IMG/VR virus record: IMGVR_UViG_3300030430_005376
Location: 64,001 to 128,000 of that record
Reading direction: 5' to 3' (one strand)
DNA from: a virus
DNA length: 64,000 nucleotides
Positions 15,407 through 29,797 of the stretch are shown in pieces; the first letter of the stretch is position 1, and every line of letters begins with the position of its first letter. Position numbers and translations under genes: made by a program. The notes under the pieces are model-generated. The model ran no database searches, had not been told where the DNA came from, and saw nothing but the letters and a program-made list of their open reading frames with translations.

Positions 15407-18400
15407 CTAGATAGTTGTTCCAGCATTTGTCACAACAAAGTCGAGAGCAACAAACTCGATAGCTCTTGTAGGCTGCAAGAAGATTTTTCCTCTAATCGTG
15501 TTGTTTTCAACATCTGCTTGGGTTGTTGTTGTTGTGTCGATTATCACTCTGAACCTATCAACACCTTGTTTCTCTTGAACTGATTGAAGAATTGGGTTGA
15601 CAAGACGTGAGAATCTGTCAAGTGTTTCTGATCTGTTAGGTTCGAACAGAAGCGTGTTTGCAACGCCGCGGACCTTCCTTCTAACATCTATGAGTAATCT
15701 TCTGATGTTGACTCTATCGAGTGCAGAATTAGCTGCAAGTAGTGTCTTCTGTCCCCATATTGCTAGAGGTCTTCCTGGATATTGAGCCAGTGGGTTAATG
15801 TCTGCATCATAGAGATCATCAAGGTTTGTTCTGTTCAAACTAACGCTTGTACTTTCTACAGCGTTTAGTGCACCACGTGTAAAGCCAGCTGGAGCAAACC
15901 AAGGATGCCCTATTCTATCGTTAAGAGAGAAAGCACCAATTGTCACAACTGACGGTGGAACAGAGACAAGTGCACGAGTGTCGGGGTCGGTAACTGTTAC
16001 GTCAGGGAAGTAAGCAGCTGCAAACGATGAATCAAGTGCTCTGTTCTTAAAAGCAGTAACTGTGTTTGCGACGTGAGGATTTTGAACAGAAGAAGTAATG
16101 ACAGAGTTGAACTGGTCTCTCTCTTCAATATCCATAATGAGCATTGCATCAAATCTATTTTCCATAGCGTCAATTGCAAAGTCTGTGACAGACGAGTGAC
16201 GAATCCCTGGTACTGTGAGAAGTTGGATATCTACGTCAGACGTTGAAGCCATGATGTCAATAGCTTTTCTGTAAGCAGCTACTGTAGGTCCTGCAGTACC
16301 GCCTTGGTTTGTAGAGTCATCAATTTCTCGCTTAGCAGCATTATTAGTTAAGTCACGCTTATCTTTGTTGAATATTTCAACACCATTGAAGCCGCCCTGC
16401 ATAGGAACTGTAAACTTAAGGTATTTTCTATTTCCGACTATTTTCAAGTCGTCCATGGTCAATCCTCTAGTTTTATTATCGTCGTTAGCAGATATTACTC
16501 CATTTCTAACGTATGATGCGCTTAACCACTGATCTGGGTCAGCAAAAGTATCTGATCCTGTTCTTACAAGAATCTTTTCTAAGCTGAATCTGTTGTTGTT
16601 AAAGCGATCACTGTCTAAAACTGCACCGTTCTGGTCGACAACACCTGGGTTGTTACCTACCGAGAAGTTAATTGCATCTTTTCTGTGATTAGGGAAGTGC
16701 TTGACAAAAGTAAACAGTGATTGGTCGAAAGGTGTATTGGCATTTGGCGTAGTTGAATTTTCAACTCTATTGGGTTGCATGCCCCAGTAGAGTGAAGAGT
16801 CCGATCTTTTGCTCAAACCCGTGCCTTGTGCGACTGTGCTTCTGTATGGGAAAGGAGGCTCAACAATTCGTTGATGTTGACCAGAATCAGTATCTAGATC
16901 GTGCCTAGCCATTTTAACACCATTAAGAAGACTACCTGAAGTAACCAAGTGGTTGGGCCCTCTATAACCCATAGGCAAAGCATCATCAGGGACTTCGTTC
17001 TTTTTCAAAGCATCAGAAATTTGAACTCTAATAAATCTAGATCTAACAGGGTGCGTACCATCCACTACTATTTTTTGTGATTCTGCATCAGCATCAAAAT
17101 TGTAAAGTATTTCTTGATCACCAATTGCTCTTCCGACAAAGCGAGAAGACCCCGGATCTAAAGATAGGCCTCTAAAAGACTCGAAAACTTTTCTTTCATC
17201 ATCAGTATCGTTAAAGTCTCTAACTAGCAGGTCAAATGTACCGTACTCGTCACTATCAGAAGTAGATTTTACTATGTTCTCTATTGATATTTTAAATCTA
17301 GAAGAAAGACCTTCACCTGCAGATAGTGCCTTAACTCTAAAAAGATTGTAGGGAACCGCACCGTAACCTTGCGATATTATAAAAGGTGTCATTGCATGCG
17401 AGAAACGATCTTCAAAAGATTCATACACAGGAACTGTCGAAGAAGGCGCGCCTTCGCCGGCGGCAACTCTTTCAACTGAAGAGGTGAGCAGCATAGCAAT
17501 TGGCTCCTCATCATTCTGATATTTTTCTGCAACCATAGCACCTGAACCTGTTACAGCTGCGATGTTTGGATGTATGTCGTAAGAGCCATAAAGGAAGTGA
17601 CCTTTTTCTTCTATTTTAAGCGGATCTGTGTTGAAAACATTAGCAAAGTAATTGTTTGCAGTCATGTCAAATGAAGCCGTTATTACTGTCGGACTAGCAG
17701 TGGTACCCTTGTAGCCGTTCATGAGCAACACAAAGTCTTGTGCACCTGCAGTTAACTTAACAGAACCAGACGTGAAACCTCTAACAGTTGAGGAATCTGC
17801 TGTGCTTGCCGGGGCACTGTTATCTACGCCGTTCTCGTTTCCACTTAAAGCTAAGACGACACCGCTTGGCGCAAGAAGAACACCACGAAGGATAGGTACA
17901 GCCCGAGGAGCTGTCACACCGCCAGACAGGCTTGATGCTGCAAGTGTGGCTGCAGAAGACTCTGCCAAGGCAATGCTGTTTCCTATTGCACCTATGGACA
18001 ATGCTGCTGTTAGTGTAATTGTCGTGGTTGTGGATCCTTCTGCTGCTGATAAGTTTGTTATACCTGACGTTGCAGCACCTGAGATGTTTGATCCGTACTT
18101 TACCTTTAAGGTATCAGATGACCCGTTAATTGCCAACACAATGTTATCGGTTTGTTGTGTTGTTGAACCACCTGCCATAGATACAAAGATTTGATTTGCA
18201 GTTGGTGTTCCGCCCATAGCATTTTTTATGACTATTTCAATTGTCTTGCTACTGTCTGCACCCATTCCAGCAGGAGTAGTTATCGTAATTGTTTCACCGT
18301 CTGAAAGACTACTTCCTATTGTAAGCGCATCTGTTAAAGAAGCAGCTGCTACAGCCTCTGGCGTAGTTTTCTGTATTCCAGCATCACTAAATATTGTCGA

Positions 18401-18844
18401 ACCATTCGACTCAGACATGAAGCATCCGAGGAAGTATGTCCGGCCATGGCCGGCTCCACCAGTGTTAGCAAACGGGTTGTTACCAACAATTCCGTTATCT
18501 TGAACAATTGATTGTCCTACGACGAAACCTGCGTTTGTAACGTTTCCTGTCGCTGAATCTCTCTTTTTTCCGTCACCGGCTCCTAAAACTCTGACGTAAG
18601 TTACAGCTTGCGCATTTTTTAACCATTCGTTAACCGCGATAGGTCCAAATTTTGTACCATCAGATGCACCATACGCTAACTTGAACTCACCGTAATTTGC
18701 AAAAGTAAGAGGCACGAAAGCAGGACCTTCGAGCGCCGTACCAACAATACCTGCAGGAACACCGGTAGGACCAGTAGGAGTAGGTCCAGAAAGATCTATT
18801 TCTCTTGTGCTTACACCTGCTGATTTAAAAGTTAATTCTGCCAT
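15407..18844 (-). CDS. Tail sheath protein 1 (gp18-like)
   Basis: N-terminal SAGVSTREIDL...GPAFVP; C-terminal WFAPAGFTRG, WGQKTL, DRVNIRRLL, LFEPN, PTRAIEFV. Confidence 0.95.
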   Translation of the reverse strand: MAELTFKSAGVSTREIDLSGPTPTGPTGVPAGIVGTALEGPAFVPLTFANYGEFKLAYGASDGTKFGPIAVNEWLKNAQAVTYVRVLGAGDGKKRDSATGNVTNAGFVVGQSIVQDNGIVGNNPFANTGGAGHGRTYFLGCFMSESNGSTIFSDAGIQKTTPEAVAAASLTDALTIGSSLSDGETITITTPAGMGADSSKTIEIVIKNAMGGTPTANQIFVSMAGGSTTQQTDNIVLAINGSSDTLKVKYGSNISGAATSGITNLSAAEGSTTTTITLTAALSIGAIGNSIALAESSAATLAASSLSGGVTAPRAVPILRGVLLAPSGVVLALSGNENGVDNSAPASTADSSTVRGFTSGSVKLTAGAQDFVLLMNGYKGTTASPTVITASFDMTANNYFANVFNTDPLKIEEKGHFLYGSYDIHPNIAAVTGSGAMVAEKYQNDEEPIAMLLTSSVERVAAGEGAPSSTVPVYESFEDRFSHAMTPFIISQGYGAVPYNLFRVKALSAGEGLSSRFKISIENIVKSTSDSDEYGTFDLLVRDFNDTDDERKVFESFRGLSLDPGSSRFVGRAIGDQEILYNFDADAESQKIVVDGTHPVRSRFIRVQISDALKKNEVPDDALPMGYRGPNHLVTSGSLLNGVKMARHDLDTDSGQHQRIVEPPFPYRSTVAQGTGLSKRSDSSLYWGMQPNRVENSTTPNANTPFDQSLFTFVKHFPNHRKDAINFSVGNNPGVVDQNGAVLDSDRFNNNRFSLEKILVRTGSDTFADPDQWLSASYVRNGVISANDDNKTRGLTMDDLKIVGNRKYLKFTVPMQGGFNGVEIFNKDKRDLTNNAAKREIDDSTNQGGTAGPTVAAYRKAIDIMASTSDVDIQLLTVPGIRHSSVTDFAIDAMENRFDAMLIMDIEERDQFNSVITSSVQNPHVANTVTAFKNRALDSSFAAAYFPDVTVTDPDTRALVSVPPSVVTIGAFSLNDRIGHPWFAPAGFTRGALNAVESTSVSLNRTNLDDLYDADINPLAQYPGRPLAIWGQKTLLAANSALDRVNIRRLLIDVRRKVRGVANTLLFEPNRSETLDRFSRLVNPILQSVQEKQGVDRFRVIIDTTTTTQADVENNTIRGKIFLQPTRAIEFVALDFVVTNAGTTI

Positions 18845-18871: not shown

Positions 18872-21800
18872 TTATTCAAAACTTACGCCTGAATTGGTAA
18901 TAATGAAATCTATTGCAATAAATTCTGCTGCTCTTGTTGGGACAAGCACAATTCTTCCATTAAGTCTATTCTGTTCTGCGTCTTCTGCAGTGTTGTTTGA
19001 AGAATCCATTATGACTCTGAAAGAGTCAATTCCTTGATTAGATTGGATTCTTGCCAGGCGAGGCTTTGTTGAATCAATAAATCTTTGTCTAGTAACAGGT
19101 GTGTTCTGTTCAAAAATCAAACCGTTTGCAATATCTGACACAATTCTCTTAACTTCTAGCAACATTCTTCTGACGTTTACTCTATCTAGCGCAGACTTTG
19201 CTTGCTGTAGCGTTTTCTGTCCAAATATCACAAATCCTCCGTCTGGGAATGAAGCGATAGGATTAATTCTTGTTTCATACAAAACGTTTCTATCTTCTGC
19301 GTTTAACCGAACCTCAGTGTTTAAGACCGAATCTAGTGCGCCTCTGTTAAATCCTGCAGGTGCAAACCACGGGAAAGCTACCCTGTCGTTGAAACCAAGG
19401 GCTCCGAGAGCAGCCACACTAGCTGGTACGTTTACTGCATCACCGTTAACTTCATCATTGATAATTACATCTGGGAAGTAAACAGCTGAGTAGTTACTGT
19501 CAAGAGCTCTTCCTTCAAACTGTTCAGCAGTTTTTCTTACGTTTGGCCGAGTCGAAGCTCCATCGTAAAGCCTAGTAAGATCATCGCTAAACGGAGGAAT
19601 GTCCATTAAGTATATTGCTTGGCTGTACTCTTTTGTTTTCTCCATCGCATGATCGGTAATGAAAGAACTTCTTAAACCTGGAAGTGTCACAATGTTAACT
19701 CTTGAAGCAAAAGGATCTGTAAGTATTGAGATTGCTGTTCTGTAAGAGCTCACAATGTTGTTTTCTTTTCCAGCGCCTGGCGAAGAGACAGCTGGCAAGT
19801 TTTCATACCCAGCAGCACCTCCAGTTGCTTTGCCTCCAGAGGCAACGTCAGAAGACTTATCATTCATAAGTCTTTGGTCTCTATCGAGAATGTTTAATCC
19901 GTCAAAGCCGCCATACATCATGTTAGTAAACTTCATGTATTCTGTAAATTTATTGAAAGCAGTGGCGGACTTAGCAGCAGCCAAGCTAGCAAATGTTAAC
20001 CTATCTAGAGCACCGTCCTTAATAGTGTATCTGGGCTTTTGAACTTTACCATTTCTGATGTACGCCGCCTCTACCATGTGTGCCGAGACAGAACCTGTTA
20101 TTTGATTTTGCAAAGAAACTGCGTCATCTAGGTTTTGAGTCGCAGATGCTGGCTGATTGAAGAAGGCTACTCTTGAAAGTGTAAATTTATTGTCATTGAA
20201 TAAGTCAACAGAAGAACCAGATAGTAATAAGTCTGATTTTTCTACTCCCAAGAACTTAGAGTAGGAATCTAATAATTTGTTTCTTTTACCAGATGCATTT
20301 GATTGCAAGACAGGGTTTGTAATGTCTTTTGATGAAGGAACAGTCTCAAATTTTACACCGAAGAAAAGCCTAGAGTCAGCTAGTTCTAAGATACCTGGGT
20401 CTCCTGTAAAGGAAGGAGAACTGTTAACTGCGCCTCTTGAAGCTTTAAACCTGAGAGGTACTGGTGGAAGTATAGATCTCTGCAATGCTGAACTACCAAC
20501 GCAACCTAATCTAAGAGTTGATGCGTGGTCACTTCCTCCTGCAAGAGTTGAAGTAGAGTCTGTAAGTGAAGTCGTTGTCTTAATCAGTGGAAGCCCTCTG
20601 AATCCGAAAGGAAGCGCGTCAGCCGGGACTTCGCCGTCTTCAACAGCAGCATTCATGACAATTCTAACAAAAGAAGATCTGTTTGGTCTCTTACCCGAAA
20701 CGTTCACTCTTCTTTCAGACTCAGTCTCTGCATCAAAATTAAACACGGCTTTGAAATCACCAATCTTGGTACCGACATAATCATCATCACCTGGATTAAG
20801 TGTGCAAAGAGGATACTGCTCCAGAATTTTCATATCAGTGTCAGTATCTGTGTAGTCTCTTACTAAAACTGTAAAAGTTCCGTATGGATTCTTAGGATCT
20901 GTTGATCTTCTTAAGTTTGATATTGAAATTTTAACTCTTCTATTTCCTGCGACACCATCATCAATTGACTCAAAGTGAAACAAGTCATACTCAGTATCTC
21001 CAAACGGCTGTGAGATAAACGAAGTGCTTCTCGAAGGACGATATCTTGTATCAAATCTTCCGTAGAGCTCTGTAAAGGGAGATCCTAATAATCCTCCAGA
21101 CTGGACTTGAGCATCTGATCCAGATGTGATACCTACGCTACCTGCAGAAGTCTTTACTTTTGCAAGTTCTGATTCAATTGGAAAGTCTGCATAGAGCAAG
21201 TGCTGCTCAGTGCCGAATCTGTCTGGGTTGGTGTTGAGAATTTTTCCAACAAAGTGTTGGCTTGCTGGATCTAGAGAAGCTGTGTAGATCCTAAGACCTG
21301 CTTGACCTTCATCATTTCCGTACAAGGATCCCATTGAAGAAGAAAGTACTATCTTAAAAGTACCAGCCCCAGAGCTACCGTCGTAAGCACTTATTGTTGC
21401 AATATCGTCGCTCACATTCGAGGTTGAGTAAGACTGATCATGGTCCAGAACCATGACTCTGGATCCTGTAGCAGTAAGTATCATTGATCTTACAAAGTGC
21501 ATGTCGCCTGTAGATGTTACAGAGCTGTTATCTGTAAGTACTGGATAACCTGCTGCCTCATTTGTCCCCTGTGTATGAATTGCTGTTAAAAACTGAACTG
21601 TTCCGTTGTATCTACTATCTTCAGATGCTTCTGCTCTAGAACCTGAGAGTCTGAAGCCTGCGTTTTTAACAATACCTGCAGTTTGTGTTAGAGAAATTTC
21701 TGATGTCGTAGCGTTTGCACCTGCCCCCAACACTCTAATGTATGTAAGAGCTGTTCTGTTTTTTAACCACTCGTTAGCTGCATAAGGACCAAACCTATCA

Positions 21801-21988
21801 GGGTCTAGAGAACCAAATTTTGATTCAAAATCAGCAAATGATCCCACAGTAACTGGCACAAACGCAGGTCCTTTTATTGAAGTTCCAATTACTCCTGCCG
21901 GGGTGCCTACAATCTCTGTAGTACGCTGAGTGAGATCAATCTCTCTCTCAAAAAAGCCCGGAGATCTGAAAGTTTGTTCTGCCATCAA
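18872..21988 (-). CDS. Tail sheath protein 2 (gp18-like)
   Basis: SPGFFEREIDL, GPAFVP, WFAPAGFNRG, FGQKTL, DRVNVRRMLL, IFEQN, PTRAAEFI. Confidence 0.95.
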   Translation of the reverse strand: MMAEQTFRSPGFFEREIDLTQRTTEIVGTPAGVIGTSIKGPAFVPVTVGSFADFESKFGSLDPDRFGPYAANEWLKNRTALTYIRVLGAGANATTSEISLTQTAGIVKNAGFRLSGSRAEASEDSRYNGTVQFLTAIHTQGTNEAAGYPVLTDNSSVTSTGDMHFVRSMILTATGSRVMVLDHDQSYSTSNVSDDIATISAYDGSSGAGTFKIVLSSSMGSLYGNDEGQAGLRIYTASLDPASQHFVGKILNTNPDRFGTEQHLLYADFPIESELAKVKTSAGSVGITSGSDAQVQSGGLLGSPFTELYGRFDTRYRPSRSTSFISQPFGDTEYDLFHFESIDDGVAGNRRVKISISNLRRSTDPKNPYGTFTVLVRDYTDTDTDMKILEQYPLCTLNPGDDDYVGTKIGDFKAVFNFDAETESERRVNVSGKRPNRSSFVRIVMNAAVEDGEVPADALPFGFRGLPLIKTTTSLTDSTSTLAGGSDHASTLRLGCVGSSALQRSILPPVPLRFKASRGAVNSSPSFTGDPGILELADSRLFFGVKFETVPSSKDITNPVLQSNASGKRNKLLDSYSKFLGVEKSDLLLSGSSVDLFNDNKFTLSRVAFFNQPASATQNLDDAVSLQNQITGSVSAHMVEAAYIRNGKVQKPRYTIKDGALDRLTFASLAAAKSATAFNKFTEYMKFTNMMYGGFDGLNILDRDQRLMNDKSSDVASGGKATGGAAGYENLPAVSSPGAGKENNIVSSYRTAISILTDPFASRVNIVTLPGLRSSFITDHAMEKTKEYSQAIYLMDIPPFSDDLTRLYDGASTRPNVRKTAEQFEGRALDSNYSAVYFPDVIINDEVNGDAVNVPASVAALGALGFNDRVAFPWFAPAGFNRGALDSVLNTEVRLNAEDRNVLYETRINPIASFPDGGFVIFGQKTLQQAKSALDRVNVRRMLLEVKRIVSDIANGLIFEQNTPVTRQRFIDSTKPRLARIQSNQGIDSFRVIMDSSNNTAEDAEQNRLNGRIVLVPTRAAEFIAIDFIITNSGVSFE

Positions 21989-25163: not shown

Positions 25164-26486
25164 TTAAATAAGGTTTTCTATTTCAAAAAATATGTCGTCT
25201 TTCGTATCAATTCTAGACTCAAAAAGGTCAGCTAGTTTAAAATTGAGAATCATCTTTTTAATTTTTTTTGTGTCTTCTTTTATTTGATTGCTAGATTTTT
25301 TATTTTTATCCTCTTGTTTTGAGTTTGCATCACTTATATTATAAAGGTCAAGCACATTTTTTTCAAAGTCGTCTATCAGATCACAAATTTTTTCATATTC
25401 TGCTTCTACGTTTCTATCACTCATCAGGTGCATCATCGCGGTGTCTCTGTTTTTCATCAAGTTTTGCAAAGAAACAAGATTTGTAATAATTTCGTTTTCT
25501 CGATTAATGTAGTAATCTAAACTATCTTTTGTGTCATTGTTCTGTATGCGGGCTTGCTCTATATCATCTAACCCTTCCATTTCGCTAAAGTCGTCGTCAG
25601 GGTCTAATAGTCTTACAAGATTTGTTTCATTTATTTTTTGCTGAGGGGACACAGCGGACCAAGATTGAAACGGCGCATTAGTCGGCTCTTTATAGTCTAA
25701 TATTATCACATCAATTACAGGTTTGATTTTGTCATTGTTTATAGTTTTGACGCCTTTAAATTTTGATCGCCCTGGAATTGGCCTAAAATAAAATTTGTTA
25801 TTTCCCGGGTCGATTGCTATTTGTGACCTTGTCTTGTAAGATGATAAGTTTCTGTGTGCATCATACGCTGTGTGATTACCAAAGAGTTTATAATTTAGTC
25901 CATCGAGTATTTTTTCGATTGTTGCTCCTTGAGAAAACATAACTTCGCCGACTGCTTTTCTTGTTACCGAAGAGATGTAATCCATGTGATCGTCGTCTAG
26001 TGAGAAACCACCTCCGAGCAATTCAATGGAATGATTTGTTCGAACTGTAGGTGTTTTCTTTTTAGTCACATCTAAAATTTTTGGTTTGCCTCTTTTATCA
26101 AATTCTAGAAGTACTGCATTGTTCTCACTTATAATAATTGTATTGCCATATACTTCGTGATTCGGTTCACACATTAAATTTGCAGCTTGAGATGGAGTTT
26201 TTGCTTGCATGAGAGCACGCAATATATTTTTACCTTCGTCCGATTTTTCTTTATTAAAATCAGTACCGTTTTCTAAGGCGGAGTTTAATATTCCAATTCT
26301 TGTGTGTCCGTTATATCCTTCCATATAATTTGTGTCATAATCATAAAGAATAACATACTCTGCATCTTGACTAACTTTGTGCACAATTGAAACGCTAGGT
26401 GAATACACTCTATCTCTATTTTTTGCAATGACAAAACCGTTATCAATCTTTTTGCAGCCAACAACGCATTCTTCTATGAGAGACAT
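25164..26486 (-). CDS. Ntn-hydrolase (NRDE/TANGO2 or C45-like) with short propeptide and C-terminal extension
   Basis: MSLIEE-CVVGC...VIAKNRDR, EGYN..IGILNS, VRTNH: N-terminal-nucleophile pattern with Cys at residue 7. Confidence 0.7.
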   Translation of the reverse strand: MSLIEECVVGCKKIDNGFVIAKNRDRVYSPSVSIVHKVSQDAEYVILYDYDTNYMEGYNGHTRIGILNSALENGTDFNKEKSDEGKNILRALMQAKTPSQAANLMCEPNHEVYGNTIIISENNAVLLEFDKRGKPKILDVTKKKTPTVRTNHSIELLGGGFSLDDDHMDYISSVTRKAVGEVMFSQGATIEKILDGLNYKLFGNHTAYDAHRNLSSYKTRSQIAIDPGNNKFYFRPIPGRSKFKGVKTINNDKIKPVIDVIILDYKEPTNAPFQSWSAVSPQQKINETNLVRLLDPDDDFSEMEGLDDIEQARIQNNDTKDSLDYYINRENEIITNLVSLQNLMKNRDTAMMHLMSDRNVEAEYEKICDLIDDFEKNVLDLYNISDANSKQEDKNKKSSNQIKEDTKKIKKMILNFKLADLFESRIDTKDDIFFEIENLI

Positions 26487-26512: not shown

Positions 26513-27298
26513 TTAAATATCTAGATGATCGTAAAACATCACTTGCTGATTGTATAAGTCATCAATTGTCTTGATATTACTTTCATTTGTAGTTAACTTT
26601 TTGTATAGCTCAATATCTTTTGACCAAGCTCTGCCTGTCCACCACTCAAATCCGGCGTAATTACTTTTACTTAATGCACTACACTCATAAGAAGAGCCGA
26701 GATAAATGTAATCAAAACCACTATTTTGTGCAACTTGCTGCTCTACGTAATAGCTTATTTTTCCTAAGTTGAGTTCAGGTGAAGCATAATCCCAAGAAAA
26801 TTGAGTAGCTACAACCGAGTTGTTGACAACATCTAGCAGGGAAAAAGCGACAGGTTTTTTAAAATGATAAAAGACAATTGTTATACGATCGTCACCATAG
26901 TCAGATTTTGCAAACGGGTGATCAGCCCCGTACATATCTACAAAACCTCTGGCATTTAGATAAAGGTTGTATATCTTTATCATGGTCTCGACATCAAAAC
27001 TGTCATAGAGCTTATAAGATAAATTGTTATCTTTGTTTAAAAGCTTCCTGTGCCTTTTTTTAAAAACATAATCACTAGGTTTCAACCTGGCTGTCCTGCT
27101 TTGATACCACACAGGAGTTCCGCTTTCCTTACATTTTCTAAACCAACTACAGTTAGGGTTATACCAAGTAGACGTAATTAACCACCCATTTTGTAAGGCG
27201 TAATCAAACTGATCACGCTCAAATATCGCAGATACAGGAGAATGTATTATTTCATACTCTTGAGTTTTACCAGCGACGTGATCAAAAAATAGCTGCAA
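26513..27298 (-). CDS. Aminoacyl-tRNA-protein transferase, ATE1/Bpt-like (GNAT-related)
   Basis: ALQNGW, WYQSRTARL, FSWDY..PELNLGKISYYVE...YIYLGSSYE...KSNY match the ATE C-terminal domain pattern; TTG start. Confidence 0.75.
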   Translation of the reverse strand: MQLFFDHVAGKTQEYEIIHSPVSAIFERDQFDYALQNGWLITSTWYNPNCSWFRKCKESGTPVWYQSRTARLKPSDYVFKKRHRKLLNKDNNLSYKLYDSFDVETMIKIYNLYLNARGFVDMYGADHPFAKSDYGDDRITIVFYHFKKPVAFSLLDVVNNSVVATQFSWDYASPELNLGKISYYVEQQVAQNSGFDYIYLGSSYECSALSKSNYAGFEWWTGRAWSKDIELYKKLTTNESNIKTIDDLYNQQVMFYDHLDI

Positions 27299-27301
27299 GT
27301 A

Positions 27302-27904
27302 TTATTCCTGTTTTAACAAAGTAAATTCCCATCCGGCGCTTCCGGCTTCGACAGACTTAAGCTCAACTTGGACTTTTAGAGGTGGTGCTTTAAAGTCATC
27401 CGGGACAGGATCTCGCCAAATAATCCTGTTGGAGGGCTGGGCTGCGATTTGACCGTTGTCAAGCTGGATTAGATAAGCAGACTTTCTTATCTCTGGAGAC
27501 TCTCCTCCCGAACCAATGGCCCAGTCAATAGTGCAATAGTATTTTCCGGCGAAGAAGCCTTTGCCTGGTACGTATACATTGCACCGGCGACCAAACAGCA
27601 TGTTGTAAACTACTGAAGTACAGTGATAAGAAAAACAATCGTAAACTTGAAGTTGCGAGAGAGACAGTTGATCTCCTTCTGGTTGTTTCCACTTGATTGC
27701 ATCAATCGGTAATCTCTCATATATTGCACCGTTTTCTAACTCTACATGAAAAGATAGCACTCTGCACATAATTGAACAACCTGCAAAGATAACACCTTTA
27801 AAGTACGCTTGATCAGGATTATTTGCAATGACATTTGAATCAACAAGAACTGGAAGAGGATCCAGATTAGTGAGTAAAAAGTTTTTTTGAACTAATCTGT
27901 CCAC
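27302..27904 (-). CDS. Conserved phage hypothetical protein
   Basis: FHVELENGAIYERLPI, LQVYDCFS, YYCTIDW, LDNGQIAAQPSNRIIW; recalled from a family of uncharacterised phage proteins. Confidence 0.7.
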   Translation of the reverse strand: MDRLVQKNFLLTNLDPLPVLVDSNVIANNPDQAYFKGVIFAGCSIMCRVLSFHVELENGAIYERLPIDAIKWKQPEGDQLSLSQLQVYDCFSYHCTSVVYNMLFGRRCNVYVPGKGFFAGKYYCTIDWAIGSGGESPEIRKSAYLIQLDNGQIAAQPSNRIIWRDPVPDDFKAPPLKVQVELKSVEAGSAGWEFTLLKQE

Positions 27905-27906
27905 AG

Positions 27907-28719
27907 CTATTCTCCTAAAGAATACAAGTCAAAAAGACTTTCTAGTCTTCTCTGATTTAACCATTTTAGGGAGATTCCATCTTTTATTTTTCTCGTTATT
28001 CCTGGACCATTAGAAGCAGCTGTAAAATTTATAGACCCACCGTAACTTACGCAAGGTATTCCATATACTTCAATTTTTTTAAATCTCTTAGAAAATTTTT
28101 CAACCCATGTATAAGTCTGATTAGGACATAAGTCAAAGTTGTCTGACTGAGATATTATTATTCCTCCTGGTTTGAGTAGACTAAAAATTGCGCTCATTAC
28201 TTCATCTGACATTATACCTTCAGAGGGAGTATCATGTTGAGGGTCAGTAATGTCTAGAAAGATAGCGTCGTATTTTTCTTTACAGTGTAGCGCCCACTGA
28301 CATGCATCTTCGACATGGAGAACGCACCTTTTATCATTAAAAGAGTCAAGGTTAAGAGAAGAGAGATACTTTTTAGAAGCTTCAATGACTTCTACGTCTA
28401 TTTCTACAAGATCTACAACGATATCATCATACTTTAATATTTCTCTAACCAGGCATCCGTCTCCTCCACCGAGAACAAGAGTTCGGCTTGGTGAGTCCAG
28501 AGAGTTCAATACTGGGTGGACCATAGACTCGTGGTATTTTGCATCATCGAGTTCTGAAAGTTGAAGTATATTATCTAAAACTAATGTCTTGCCTAAAGAG
28601 CCTAATTCAACTACTTGAAGCTTTTGAAACTTGGTTAAACTCTCGTGTAAGACTTTAATCAGAGGAAATGTGTGTGCGTGTCCTTCGTTAGAGAGTACAA
28701 AAGTCATTTGATTTGTCAT
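27907..28719 (-). CDS. speE: Spermidine synthase / aminopropyltransferase
   Basis: GKTLVLDNILQ, YHESMVHP, LVLGGGDGC, VEID..V, FLDITDP. Confidence 0.92.
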   Translation of the reverse strand: MTNQMTFVLSNEGHAHTFPLIKVLHESLTKFQKLQVVELGSLGKTLVLDNILQLSELDDAKYHESMVHPVLNSLDSPSRTLVLGGGDGCLVREILKYDDIVVDLVEIDVEVIEASKKYLSSLNLDSFNDKRCVLHVEDACQWALHCKEKYDAIFLDITDPQHDTPSEGIMSDEVMSAIFSLLKPGGIIISQSDNFDLCPNQTYTWVEKFSKRFKKIEVYGIPCVSYGGSINFTAASNGPGITRKIKDGISLKWLNQRRLESLFDLYSLGE

Positions 28720-28727
28720 TTTAAAAC

Positions 28728-29192
28728 CTACGGTATTCTGCGAGATGCTACTTGAGTAGTTATCTCTCTTATGTCATAAAATTTACTTATGACGGATTTT
28801 ACTTTTTCTACGTCAAAACTTTTGCATGAGTAACAGTCAAATGAAAAATACTCTAACTCAGGAAAGGTGTGGATACTCAAGTGAGATTCAGCGATCATGG
28901 CAAACGATGAGTAACCGTATGACTCATTTTTTCTTTCTTGTAGCTTATTTCTCAGGTCTTTTGCTGATTTGCTCTCGCCAAGACCTTCAGATTCAAGATC
29001 CTGCAACACTCTTTTCATTTCGCAAGTTGCGTGAGGAAACTTAACTGTCACAGGAGGCAATATCATTGTCATGTCAATTTCTTCTATGATGGCTTCGAGC
29101 ATGCTCACACCAACCTCAGGAGAAACTAAAGACTCTGGGTTCTTCACGACTGCGTCTATCATCAAGTGTAAACCGTCGTATTCAAAACTCAT
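28728..29192 (-). CDS. speD: S-adenosylmethionine decarboxylase proenzyme (pyruvoyl-dependent, SpeD family)
   Basis: GLHLMID, IAESHLSIHTFPE (self-cleavage motif E-SH), FDCYSCKSFD. Confidence 0.9.
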   Translation of the reverse strand: MSFEYDGLHLMIDAVVKNPESLVSPEVGVSMLEAIIEEIDMTMILPPVTVKFPHATCEMKRVLQDLESEGLGESKSAKDLRNKLQERKNESYGYSSFAMIAESHLSIHTFPELEYFSFDCYSCKSFDVEKVKSVISKFYDIREITTQVASRRIP

Positions 29193-29797
29193 GTCTTAGC
29201 TCCTAACACTTTAAATAGGTTTTTTCTGCCCAAATTACCTGTCCAGTGACAAGAAGAACAGCCAAAGACCAAATCAAAACTAGGTAAGTTATCTAGATTG
29301 AAATCATAGACTTCTTCTGTTTCAAACTTTAAACTCATGCCTTTAGGAAAATTTTCAGAATCTTTGTTTCTAAACCAAGTGTACTTTATAATAGGGCTGT
29401 CTTGTAAAAAGTAAACCCAGTTACCCTCGTCTAACTCATCAATTGAATGCCATCCTTCATAGTACACGTCGTGATGATGATCAAAATTAAAAATGCTAAA
29501 AGGCTCATCTTTCGGCAAGAAAGGTAATATTTGATGGTGATGTTCTGCTATTACAACAGGGGTGTCTATGCTGGTTTTTTCTCTAATAACACTTTTCAAC
29601 AATTCTATTTTTGATTGATTTACTTCGGGTGTTGGCAGATTATTTTCTTTAAAAATCTTCATCTGCTCTAGCAGAGATATTTTACTGCCTTCAACATAGT
29701 CTTCGTAGACGGAAATTGTAGGACTATACGCATAATCAATGTCGATAGAGAGTATATTCACGAAACGCTTCTTTTTAATTTTAAAATTCTGATACAA
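29189..29797 (-). CDS. UPF0489 / arginase-deacetylase-fold metal-dependent hydrolase
   Basis: ILSIDIDY, EHHHQI, NFDHHHD, EGNW, FGCSSCHW; start may be GTG at 29761. Confidence 0.65.
   Translation of the reverse strand: MYQNFKIKKKRFVNILSIDIDYAYSPTISVYEDYVEGSKISLLEQMKIFKENNLPTPEVNQSKIELLKSVIREKTSIDTPVVIAEHHHQILPFLPKDEPFSIFNFDHHHDVYYEGWHSIDELDEGNWVYFLQDSPIIKYTWFRNKDSENFPKGMSLKFETEEVYDFNLDNLPSFDLVFGCSSCHWTGNLGRKNLFKVLGAKT

Follow-up and report, generated by a model that had tools for sequence, protein, structure and literature searches.

A run of five tightly packed genes in a marine phage genome fragment, encoding an arginase-fold hydrolase, homologs of SpeD and SpeE, a β-barrel protein and a transferase resembling ATE and Bpt enzymes, raises two questions: do the five genes serve one pathway, and on what does the arginase-fold enzyme act? 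The locus lies within bases 64001–128000 of IMG/VR virus record IMGVR_UViG_3300030430_005376 (137,660 bp; completeness ~53% according to CheckV); this whole stretch of 64,000 nucleotides is referred to below as the window. With moderate confidence, we read the first three genes as a phage spermidine cassette in which the UPF0489-related arginase-fold protein (P0001) would replace SpeB, acting on agmatine or N1-aminopropylagmatine, and the last two genes as a separate module. In transcription order, the five open reading frames (ORFs), with their lengths as called, are:

29189..29797, likely 29189..29761, minus strand (202 aa as called): UPF0489-related minimal arginase-fold protein (P0001), from AF2 model, VIA, metal motifs and linkage
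28728..29192, minus strand (154 aa): SpeD homolog (P0004), pyruvoyl, class 1b S-adenosylmethionine decarboxylase (AdoMetDC) family, from PF02675 and phrog_3125
27907..28719, minus strand (270 aa): SpeE aminopropyltransferase of the spermidine / N1-aminopropylagmatine synthase type, from PF01564 and PF17284
27302..27904, minus strand (200 aa): phrog_3704-family tandem small β-barrel protein (P0002), from phrog_3704 (E 5e-34) and AF2 model
26513..27298, minus strand (261 aa): ATE/Bpt-like aminoacyl-tRNA transferase (P0003), from PF04377, NCBIfam and homolog profile

According to the ORF list, these consecutive genes span positions 29797–26513 of the window; the first junction is a 4-nt overlap (ATGA), followed by gaps of 8, 2 and 3 nt. 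Many other contigs show the same arrangement, so the ORFs do not lie together by chance.

The arginase-fold gene and its polyamine partners

Neighbours were scored at 80 viral and 80 metagenomic loci encoding arginase-fold relatives, with flanks of 5–8 kb, and close groups (at least 38% identity to P0001, distinct at ≤95% identity; n = 41) were separated from remote relatives (<36% identity; n = 57). SpeD and/or SpeE directly adjoin the arginase-fold gene in 29 of the 41 close groups, and the trio of UPF0489-like gene (U), SpeD (D) and SpeE (E) was found in five of the six possible orders (U-D-E, U-E-D, D-U-E, E-U-D, and D-E-U). Six further close groups have no SpeD or SpeE; instead, a 4-nt overlap joins the arginase-fold gene to one for a 318-aa PF01916 homolog of deoxyhypusine synthase (DHS)/SpeY, which NCBIfam matches best to “homospermidine biosynthesis protein” and bis-guanidino-aza-nonane (SpeY) synthase, with scores below cut-offs. 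This pairing suggests a phage homospermidine module. The overlap can be seen at L005:3804–5359 and at eight similar loci (the nine together being L002–L009 and L011).

No polyamine neighbour was detected beside any of the 57 remote relatives, of which about 45 loci share a conserved replication neighbourhood, as judged by ORF clustering. At the one annotated locus (L065:8001–8642), the remote relative lies between a Dda-like helicase and a DNA polymerase. Remote relatives of this type (25–33% identity to P0001) retain all six metal ligands. In an IQ-TREE phylogeny the polyamine-linked clade is split from the remote clade (support 100/96), and the DHS/SpeY-linked genes form a single clade (100/100) nested among the SpeD/SpeE-linked genes.

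SpeY joins two agmatines into N1,N9-bis(guanidino)homospermidine, and a ureohydrolase is needed to yield homospermidine (PMC13625781). Because an arginase-fold enzyme is kept beside either type of aminoalkyl-transferase, the guanidino intermediates of which (SpeE can make them, SpeY always makes them) need a ureohydrolase, P0001 is interpreted as the de-guanidinating step. In this first module, spermidine would be made from the arginine-derived pool of the host: SpeD most likely supplies decarboxylated S-adenosylmethionine (SAM), SpeE would move its aminopropyl group to putrescine and/or agmatine, and P0001 (190 aa, with a predicted binuclear-Mn site) would take the place of SpeB without being its ortholog, stripping urea from agmatine and/or N1-aminopropylagmatine. 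The sister clade of P0001 would perform the equivalent step beside the SpeY/DHS homolog, converting the bis-guanidino product to homospermidine. The gene identities, the invariant metal motifs and the linkage counts are observed; from them we infer the substrates of all three cassette enzymes (that of P0001 from gene context, metal motifs and fold), the timing, and any role in DNA condensation or translation.

All close homologs of P0001 begin with MN(I/V)LSIDID, 12 residues after the called start; the start was therefore moved to the GTG at 29761 (MNILSIDID), so that the gene probably comprises 29761–29189 and encodes 190 aa. An alignment of 31 sequences of the family and another of 149 both have D19-I-D21, H87, and D106-H-H108-H-D110 invariant. 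By sequence, these residues correspond to the six-ligand set of binuclear-Mn ureohydrolases, and a Mn site is predicted; the order of the motifs is permuted relative to PF00491, with the DxD coming first, at the N-terminus. In the 149-sequence alignment, W116 is invariant solely in the polyamine-linked clade. The PF12640 (UPF0489) profile matches five of the 31 relatives (best 6e-7), and P0065 also carries PF12640; PF00491 (Arginase) matches two of the 31, at E 0.044. On these profile scores, the P0001 clade is peripheral to UPF0489, not a scoring member.

The AF2 model of P0001 (pLDDT 94) was compared with known structures using VIA, which placed the OspR peptide arginase first (Z 6.9, 20% identity), followed by about 14 ureohydrolases (agmatinases, arginases, and others) with Z 5–6; ureohydrolases occupy 14 of the top 17 rows, with Z only 5.2–6.9 over 113–131 residues. 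Foldseek returned nothing at E ≤ 0.001 (best E 0.024), and a sequence-profile search of the PDB with the arginase-fold family gave chance matches only. Among the weak Foldseek rows are HDAC8 and HDAC4. Arginases share a superfold with histone deacetylases (HDACs) and acetylpolyamine amidohydrolases (APAHs), and some giant viruses encode APAH (PMC9992855), which would accommodate P0001 as a deacetylase-type enzyme that frees spermidine from N-acetylspermidine. Such an activity is very hard to reconcile with the invariant H, DxHxD and DxD, which follow the six-ligand binuclear ureohydrolase pattern and not the D-H-D zinc site of deacetylases; moreover, ureohydrolases rather than HDACs fill the VIA list, and the coupling to SpeY, the product of which needs de-guanidination, would be left unexplained.

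Cellular genomes contain almost no members of the family: a set of 185,579 species genomes yielded 10 loci, one of them the same trio on a short contig of a metagenome-assembled genome (MAG). Another of the 10, on a Halobacteriovorax MAG contig (L215:4842–8621), encodes a remote UPF0489-like protein of 222 aa, with genes for SpeD and SpeE homologs ~2 kb farther downstream. A class II aldolase with MtnB (methylthioribulose-1-phosphate dehydratase) as best match is encoded after SpeE at L012:9839–10444 (= L138), and at L131:1814–2410; each copy stands beside SpeE or the arginase-fold gene. This neighbour hints at salvage of the methylthioadenosine by-product, which it would fit.

The SpeD and SpeE homologs and the source of putrescine

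P0004 matches PF02675 with 68.5 bits (cut-off 25) as well as phrog_3125. The translation contains a processing site (AES/HLSIHTFPE) with His at +5 and Cys at +20, and AESHLSIHTFPE...C is present. Only profile positions 42–106 of PF02675 align, because of an insertion of ~40 aa in the β chain (residues ~47–92), which L010 and L012 share with high conservation. The TIGR03330 score is 55.5 (cut-off 75.65). The pyruvoyl serine is at position 103, compared with about 63 in class 1b. In the class 1a enzyme of E. coli it is at 112, and the position in P0004 would be intermediate between class 1b and class 1a.

The substrate of P0004 bears on where the cassette would start. In Microcystis phage MaAM05 (L090, record bases 246315–249093), the gene order is speH_2 – speH_1 – speE – speB; the canonical SpeD copy has HTWPE, and the atypical copy is without the proline. 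A proline is reported to distinguish true AdoMetDC from arginine decarboxylase (ADC) (PMC10407285); we infer that the HTFPE proline is meant, which the MaAM05 pair fits, and the proline-less MaAM05 copy is likely a pyruvoyl ADC on this motif. P0004 keeps the HTFPE proline, although its full-length alignment is to the proline-less speH_1 (E 7e-17), with only a 34-residue core aligning to the canonical speH_2.

The latter alignment gives weight to a linear route from arginine to spermidine, in which SpeD would be a pyruvoyl decarboxylase of arginine (or ornithine), the arginase-fold protein an agmatinase (or arginase) making putrescine, and SpeE would use decarboxylated SAM of the host. The actual activity of many phage SpeD homologs is that of an arginine or ornithine decarboxylase (PMC9992855), no ADC or ornithine decarboxylase (ODC) was found elsewhere in the record, and such a route would begin with a free amino acid and need each gene just once. 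We nevertheless regard this linear route as doubtful, if a serious alternative: beyond the retained proline, P0004 is the sole SpeD homolog in the record and stands beside SpeE, an arrangement regarded as usual for AdoMetDC in one paper, and tblastn found AdoMetDCs of cyanophages and a Croceibacter phage, but no pelagiphage ADC-type homolog. Thus, P0004 is probably, though by no means certainly, an AdoMetDC rather than an ADC or ODC. Whichever substrate SpeD uses, the cassette would still end in spermidine and need a ureohydrolase.

SpeE is assigned by PF01564 (118.9 bits) and PF17284 (30.7 bits), both over their cut-offs, and its translation contains the motifs GGGDG and DITDP (D-x-x-D-P); NF002010 matches at E 2.1e-57, yet below the equivalog cut-off (194.5 vs. 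260). Agmatine also serves most spermidine synthases as an acceptor, and the resulting N1-aminopropylagmatine is then turned into spermidine by a ureohydrolase (PMC11107197).

Several observations weigh against the spermidine cassette with P0001 in place of SpeB. P0001 itself is without any Pfam match, including to PF12640 even at E 1 and to PF00491; its structural Z values of 5–7 are in the range where VIA warns of a merely common arrangement and are modest alone; and the best structural match is a peptide arginase, not an agmatinase. P0004, being closer overall to the probably neofunctionalised speH_1 of MaAM05, may be an arginine decarboxylase, and partners of the cassette may be missing from a record that is ~53% complete. 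Six of the 41 close groups are without a polyamine partner; four of these are at contig ends, yet L111 and L136 are close relatives with adequate flanks and still without a polyamine neighbour. Finally, the backbone genes g440 and g391 are common to many trio contigs, which belong in part to a single lineage, and the counts are not independent events.

The shared backbone, together with the position of the cassette on either side of g440 and the occurrence of remote arginase-fold relatives in replication modules without polyamine genes, could also mean that the adjacency has no function, the arginase-fold gene and SpeD/SpeE being cargo co-inherited in one lineage at an insertion hot spot by the neck genes. 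We consider such passive carriage improbable, as the three genes stay contiguous across five internal orders, and the partner was switched once to SpeY, which is another producer of a guanidino-polyamine. In addition, L010 and L012 have the trio, with none of g440, g391, g109, and g139 detected in the fetched flanks, and the Halobacteriovorax contig has its remote UPF0489-like gene 2 kb from SpeD–SpeE.

The β-barrel protein and the ATE-like transferase

Across 114 records of cyanophages and pelagiphages, relatives of P0002 go by the names PurM or ferredoxin. The AF2 model of P0002 (pLDDT 89.9) is all-β, with two small β-barrels (Tudor/SH3/KOW-like); Foldseek matched tandem Tudor domains (E 8.5e-4), and the VIA Z was at most 5.9. 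There was no Pfam or NCBIfam match, including to the AIRS synthase and 2Fe-2S ferredoxin domains, and the Atlas was without a usable match. We therefore reject the PurM and ferredoxin names for P0002, on the tandem small β-barrel model and the lack of any domain match, and regard these labels of the phrog_3704 family as a widespread misannotation.

P0003 matches the ATE_C domain (PF04377) with 31.7 bits (cut-off 25) and the NCBIfam arginyltransferase models at E 4e-9, with all scores far under the cut-offs. A profile of nine P0003 homologs searched against the PDB retrieved yeast and fungal ATE1 structures only (E 2.6e-5), and the YLG...Y..F motif region is conserved. ATE_N (PF04376) was not matched, and the nine homologs have no invariant Cys in their N-terminal 90 residues. 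P0003 probably adds an amino acid from aminoacyl-tRNA onto the N-terminus of a protein.

A scan of viral contigs with the single P0003 sequence found nothing, but a scan with the nine-homolog alignment did find relatives, which are carried by 33 viral contigs. In 26 of these, a phrog_3704-like ORF ends exactly at the start of the ATE-like gene. An arginase-fold gene is present in none of the 33, SpeD/SpeE occur in L173 only (the same contig as L087), and other window genes were undetected within ±6 kb in 29. Conversely, only five of the 41 close arginase-fold groups, plus the window, have an ATE-like gene, and most trios are without one; where these close groups carry it, the order is fixed as SpeE, β-barrel gene, ATE-like gene, g440. 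In L087, a ClpP-like gene is followed by SpeD–SpeE–g200–ATE without an arginase-fold gene. The ORF upstream of SpeD in L087 (4874–5476), considered as a diverged arginase-fold gene, turned out to encode a ClpP-like protease, and the ORFs after SpeE in L215 were rejected as a g200/ATE pair. Because the ATE-like gene pairs with the β-barrel gene independently of the trio, the five genes constitute two modules; P0002 and P0003 form a separate, widely distributed, conserved phage two-gene module that abuts the cassette in one lineage. A literature search found no report of a β-barrel and ATE/Bpt-like pair in phages.

These distributions divide the proposals of an earlier note on this DNA, which had treated the five genes as one coupled operon. 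A single functional unit is not supported, the β-barrel and ATE-like genes forming a pair of their own in 26 of 33 contigs and most trios being without the ATE-like gene. For the gene-neighbourhood check that it proposed, co-occurrence of UPF0489-like, SpeD, and SpeE genes was recovered (29 of 41 groups with SpeD and/or SpeE), but the ATE-like gene only rarely accompanied them (5/41). Of its two interpretations, one combined polyamine supply with N-degron manipulation; the polyamine-supply half is strongly supported, the arginase-fold gene being linked with SpeD/SpeE again and again, and N-degron manipulation by the ATE-like enzyme is possible. The other was a tailoring pathway in which Arg is ligated to an acceptor, de-guanidinated, and aminopropylated; its predicted co-occurrence of ATE, UPF0489, SpeD, and SpeE failed in the neighbourhood analysis.

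This tailoring pathway would make P0001 a peptide or protein arginase (Arg to Orn) working with the ATE-like transferase and SpeE. BipC (UPF0489 superfamily) and OspR are peptide arginases (PMC12707348), the only UPF0489 enzymes so far characterised act on peptides or proteins, OspR is the top structural match of P0001, as given above, and the five genes are tightly packed in the window. The lead of OspR over the agmatinases is, however, ~1 Z unit, a tie by VIA; no precursor-peptide genes or genes of the type found with ribosomally synthesized and post-translationally modified peptides (RiPPs) were seen; and the rarity of the ATE-like gene among close groups, the absence of UPF0489-like genes from the 33 ATE-bearing viral contigs, and the gene content of L087 all separate the supposed partners. 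A peptide arginase at this locus is accordingly judged quite improbable.

Module 2 consists of the β-barrel protein and the ATE/Bpt-like transferase, with probable N-terminal aminoacylation of a protein. Among the physiological substrates of LFTR/ClpS in E. coli is putrescine aminotransferase (bioRxiv 10.1101/2021.07.26.453911), and an N-degron link is conceivable because of this and because the record encodes a ClpP-family protein. The ClpP-family gene (G000:C1:55603–56106) lies outside the window, ~35 kb from the ATE-like gene. A more far-reaching proposal, which we put forward only as an unlikely one, is that the phage-restricted 190-aa UPF0489-related clade would be a new ureohydrolase class for small-molecule polyamines, serving the aminopropyl (SpeD/SpeE) as well as the aminobutyl (SpeY) routes, and that N-terminal aminoacylation by the β-barrel/ATE pair would be tied to the same physiology, e.g., by tagging a host polyamine-catabolic enzyme for ClpS/ClpAP degradation, in the manner of E. 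coli LFTR with putrescine aminotransferase, or by charging newly cleaved head proteins.

Genomic setting and comparison with known systems

Nearly every gene of the window is encoded by the minus strand. Read in the direction of transcription, genes for the large terminase, portal, and major head protein come first, followed by small ORFs, the five genes, a 440-aa Ntn-hydrolase-like gene, a head–tail-adaptor-like gene, and two tail sheath paralogs. With head genes upstream and adaptor and tail sheath genes downstream, the source is a fragment of a contractile-tailed marine phage (myovirus), and the five genes are within its late structural region; it is probably a jumbo phage. The tail sheath paralogs are in tandem (15407–18844 and 18872–21988, minus strand; 1145 and 1038 aa). 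The window is without tRNA genes, and searches of the 137.7-kb record (~53% complete) revealed no ADC/ODC, canonical arginase, or second SpeD. The earlier note had anticipated much of this: five co-oriented genes with gaps of −4 to 8 bp agree with the ORF list, their placement between head genes and the neck module is confirmed by the flanking genes, the absence of a standard ornithine or arginine decarboxylase extends across the record, and the identities it gave (UPF0489-type arginase fold, SpeD, SpeE, ATE/Bpt-like) are essentially upheld by Pfam, NCBIfam, and structure. The gene next downstream is:

25164..26486, minus strand: Ntn-hydrolase-like backbone gene g440 (C45/AAT/TANGO2-like), 440 aa, from PF03417/PF05742 structure clusters

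The g440 product has Atlas feature and structure matches to PF03417/PF05742 clusters, and its L097 homolog weakly matches NF040521. Its homologs occur on either side of the polyamine trio in 13 groups and also adjoin neck genes; g440 was therefore rejected as a pathway member and assigned to the backbone. Since the cassette can lie to either side of it, g440 seems to mark an insertion hot spot. A blastn search with the region and tblastn searches with P0001 and P0003 against 50,697 phage records gave no matches. In a near-identical relative (L172:1–7328), the β-barrel gene, g440, and neck genes are 92–98% identical to those of the window phage, and the ATE-like gene only 59%; this divergence hints that recombination has replaced the allele.

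Among marine auxiliary genes, speD carried by phages is a classic; the three-gene polyamine cassette is now seen in dozens of marine phage contigs, and a first testable small-molecule function is proposed for the UPF0489-related family. If the proposal is true, the cassette lets phages draw directly on the host agmatine or arginine pool. Agmatine is a branch point of polyamine synthesis in cyanobacteria. It is also one in SAR11 (PMC9992855). For the second module, the “PurM” and “ferredoxin” misannotation of phrog_3704 is corrected, and a conserved phage pair around an ATE/Bpt-like transferase is defined.

The closest known arrangements are the speD–speE(–speB) polyamine clusters, which occur in bacteria as well as phages, among them those of an uncultured Caudovirales phage with AdoMetDC and spermidine synthase (PMC9992855) and of MaAM05, which likewise encode a pyruvoyl SpeD homolog and an aminopropyltransferase. 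The speH2–speH1–speE–speB order of MaAM05 further resembles the window in clustering an arginase-fold hydrolase with SpeD/SpeE as a phage-borne auxiliary polyamine module. However, the hydrolase described here is a 190-aa UPF0489-related protein with an N-terminal DxD, not a PF00491 SpeB, and unlike MaAM05 the cassette has a single SpeD homolog, with the ~40-aa insertion. A 2023 survey of the virosphere identified the SpeD and SpeE pair in only one phage (PMC9992855), in contrast to the dozens of marine phage contigs here.

As in the N1-aminopropylagmatine route of Thermus thermophilus and Thermococcus kodakarensis (PMC11107197), SpeE is proposed to aminopropylate agmatine before a ureohydrolase releases spermidine, although the ureohydrolase here is from a different family, and agmatine might equally well be turned into putrescine before the aminopropyl transfer. 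The six phage groups with translational coupling between a DHS/SpeY homolog and a member of the arginase-fold clade resemble the bacterial pathway of SpeY and bis-guanidino-homospermidine ureohydrolase (PMC13625781); they differ in that the phage DHS homolog scores below NCBIfam cut-offs, its product being predicted, and this DHS variant is outside the window. P0001 has the same Mn-binding motif set as BipC, a UPF0489-superfamily peptide arginase (PMC12707348), and probably shares the UPF0489 superfamily or arginase fold with BipC, PbsE, and OspR (PMC12707348; PDB 8brp), but those enzymes act on Arg in RiPP precursor peptides inside RiPP clusters, whereas P0001 has polyamine enzymes as its conserved neighbours, and its surroundings showed no precursor peptide. 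Similarly, P0003 resembles bacterial Bpt and eukaryotic ATE1 in its ATE_C catalytic-domain match and YLG...Y..F region, and differs from both in being phage-encoded, without an ATE_N match or N-terminal Cys cluster, and paired with an upstream phrog_3704 protein.

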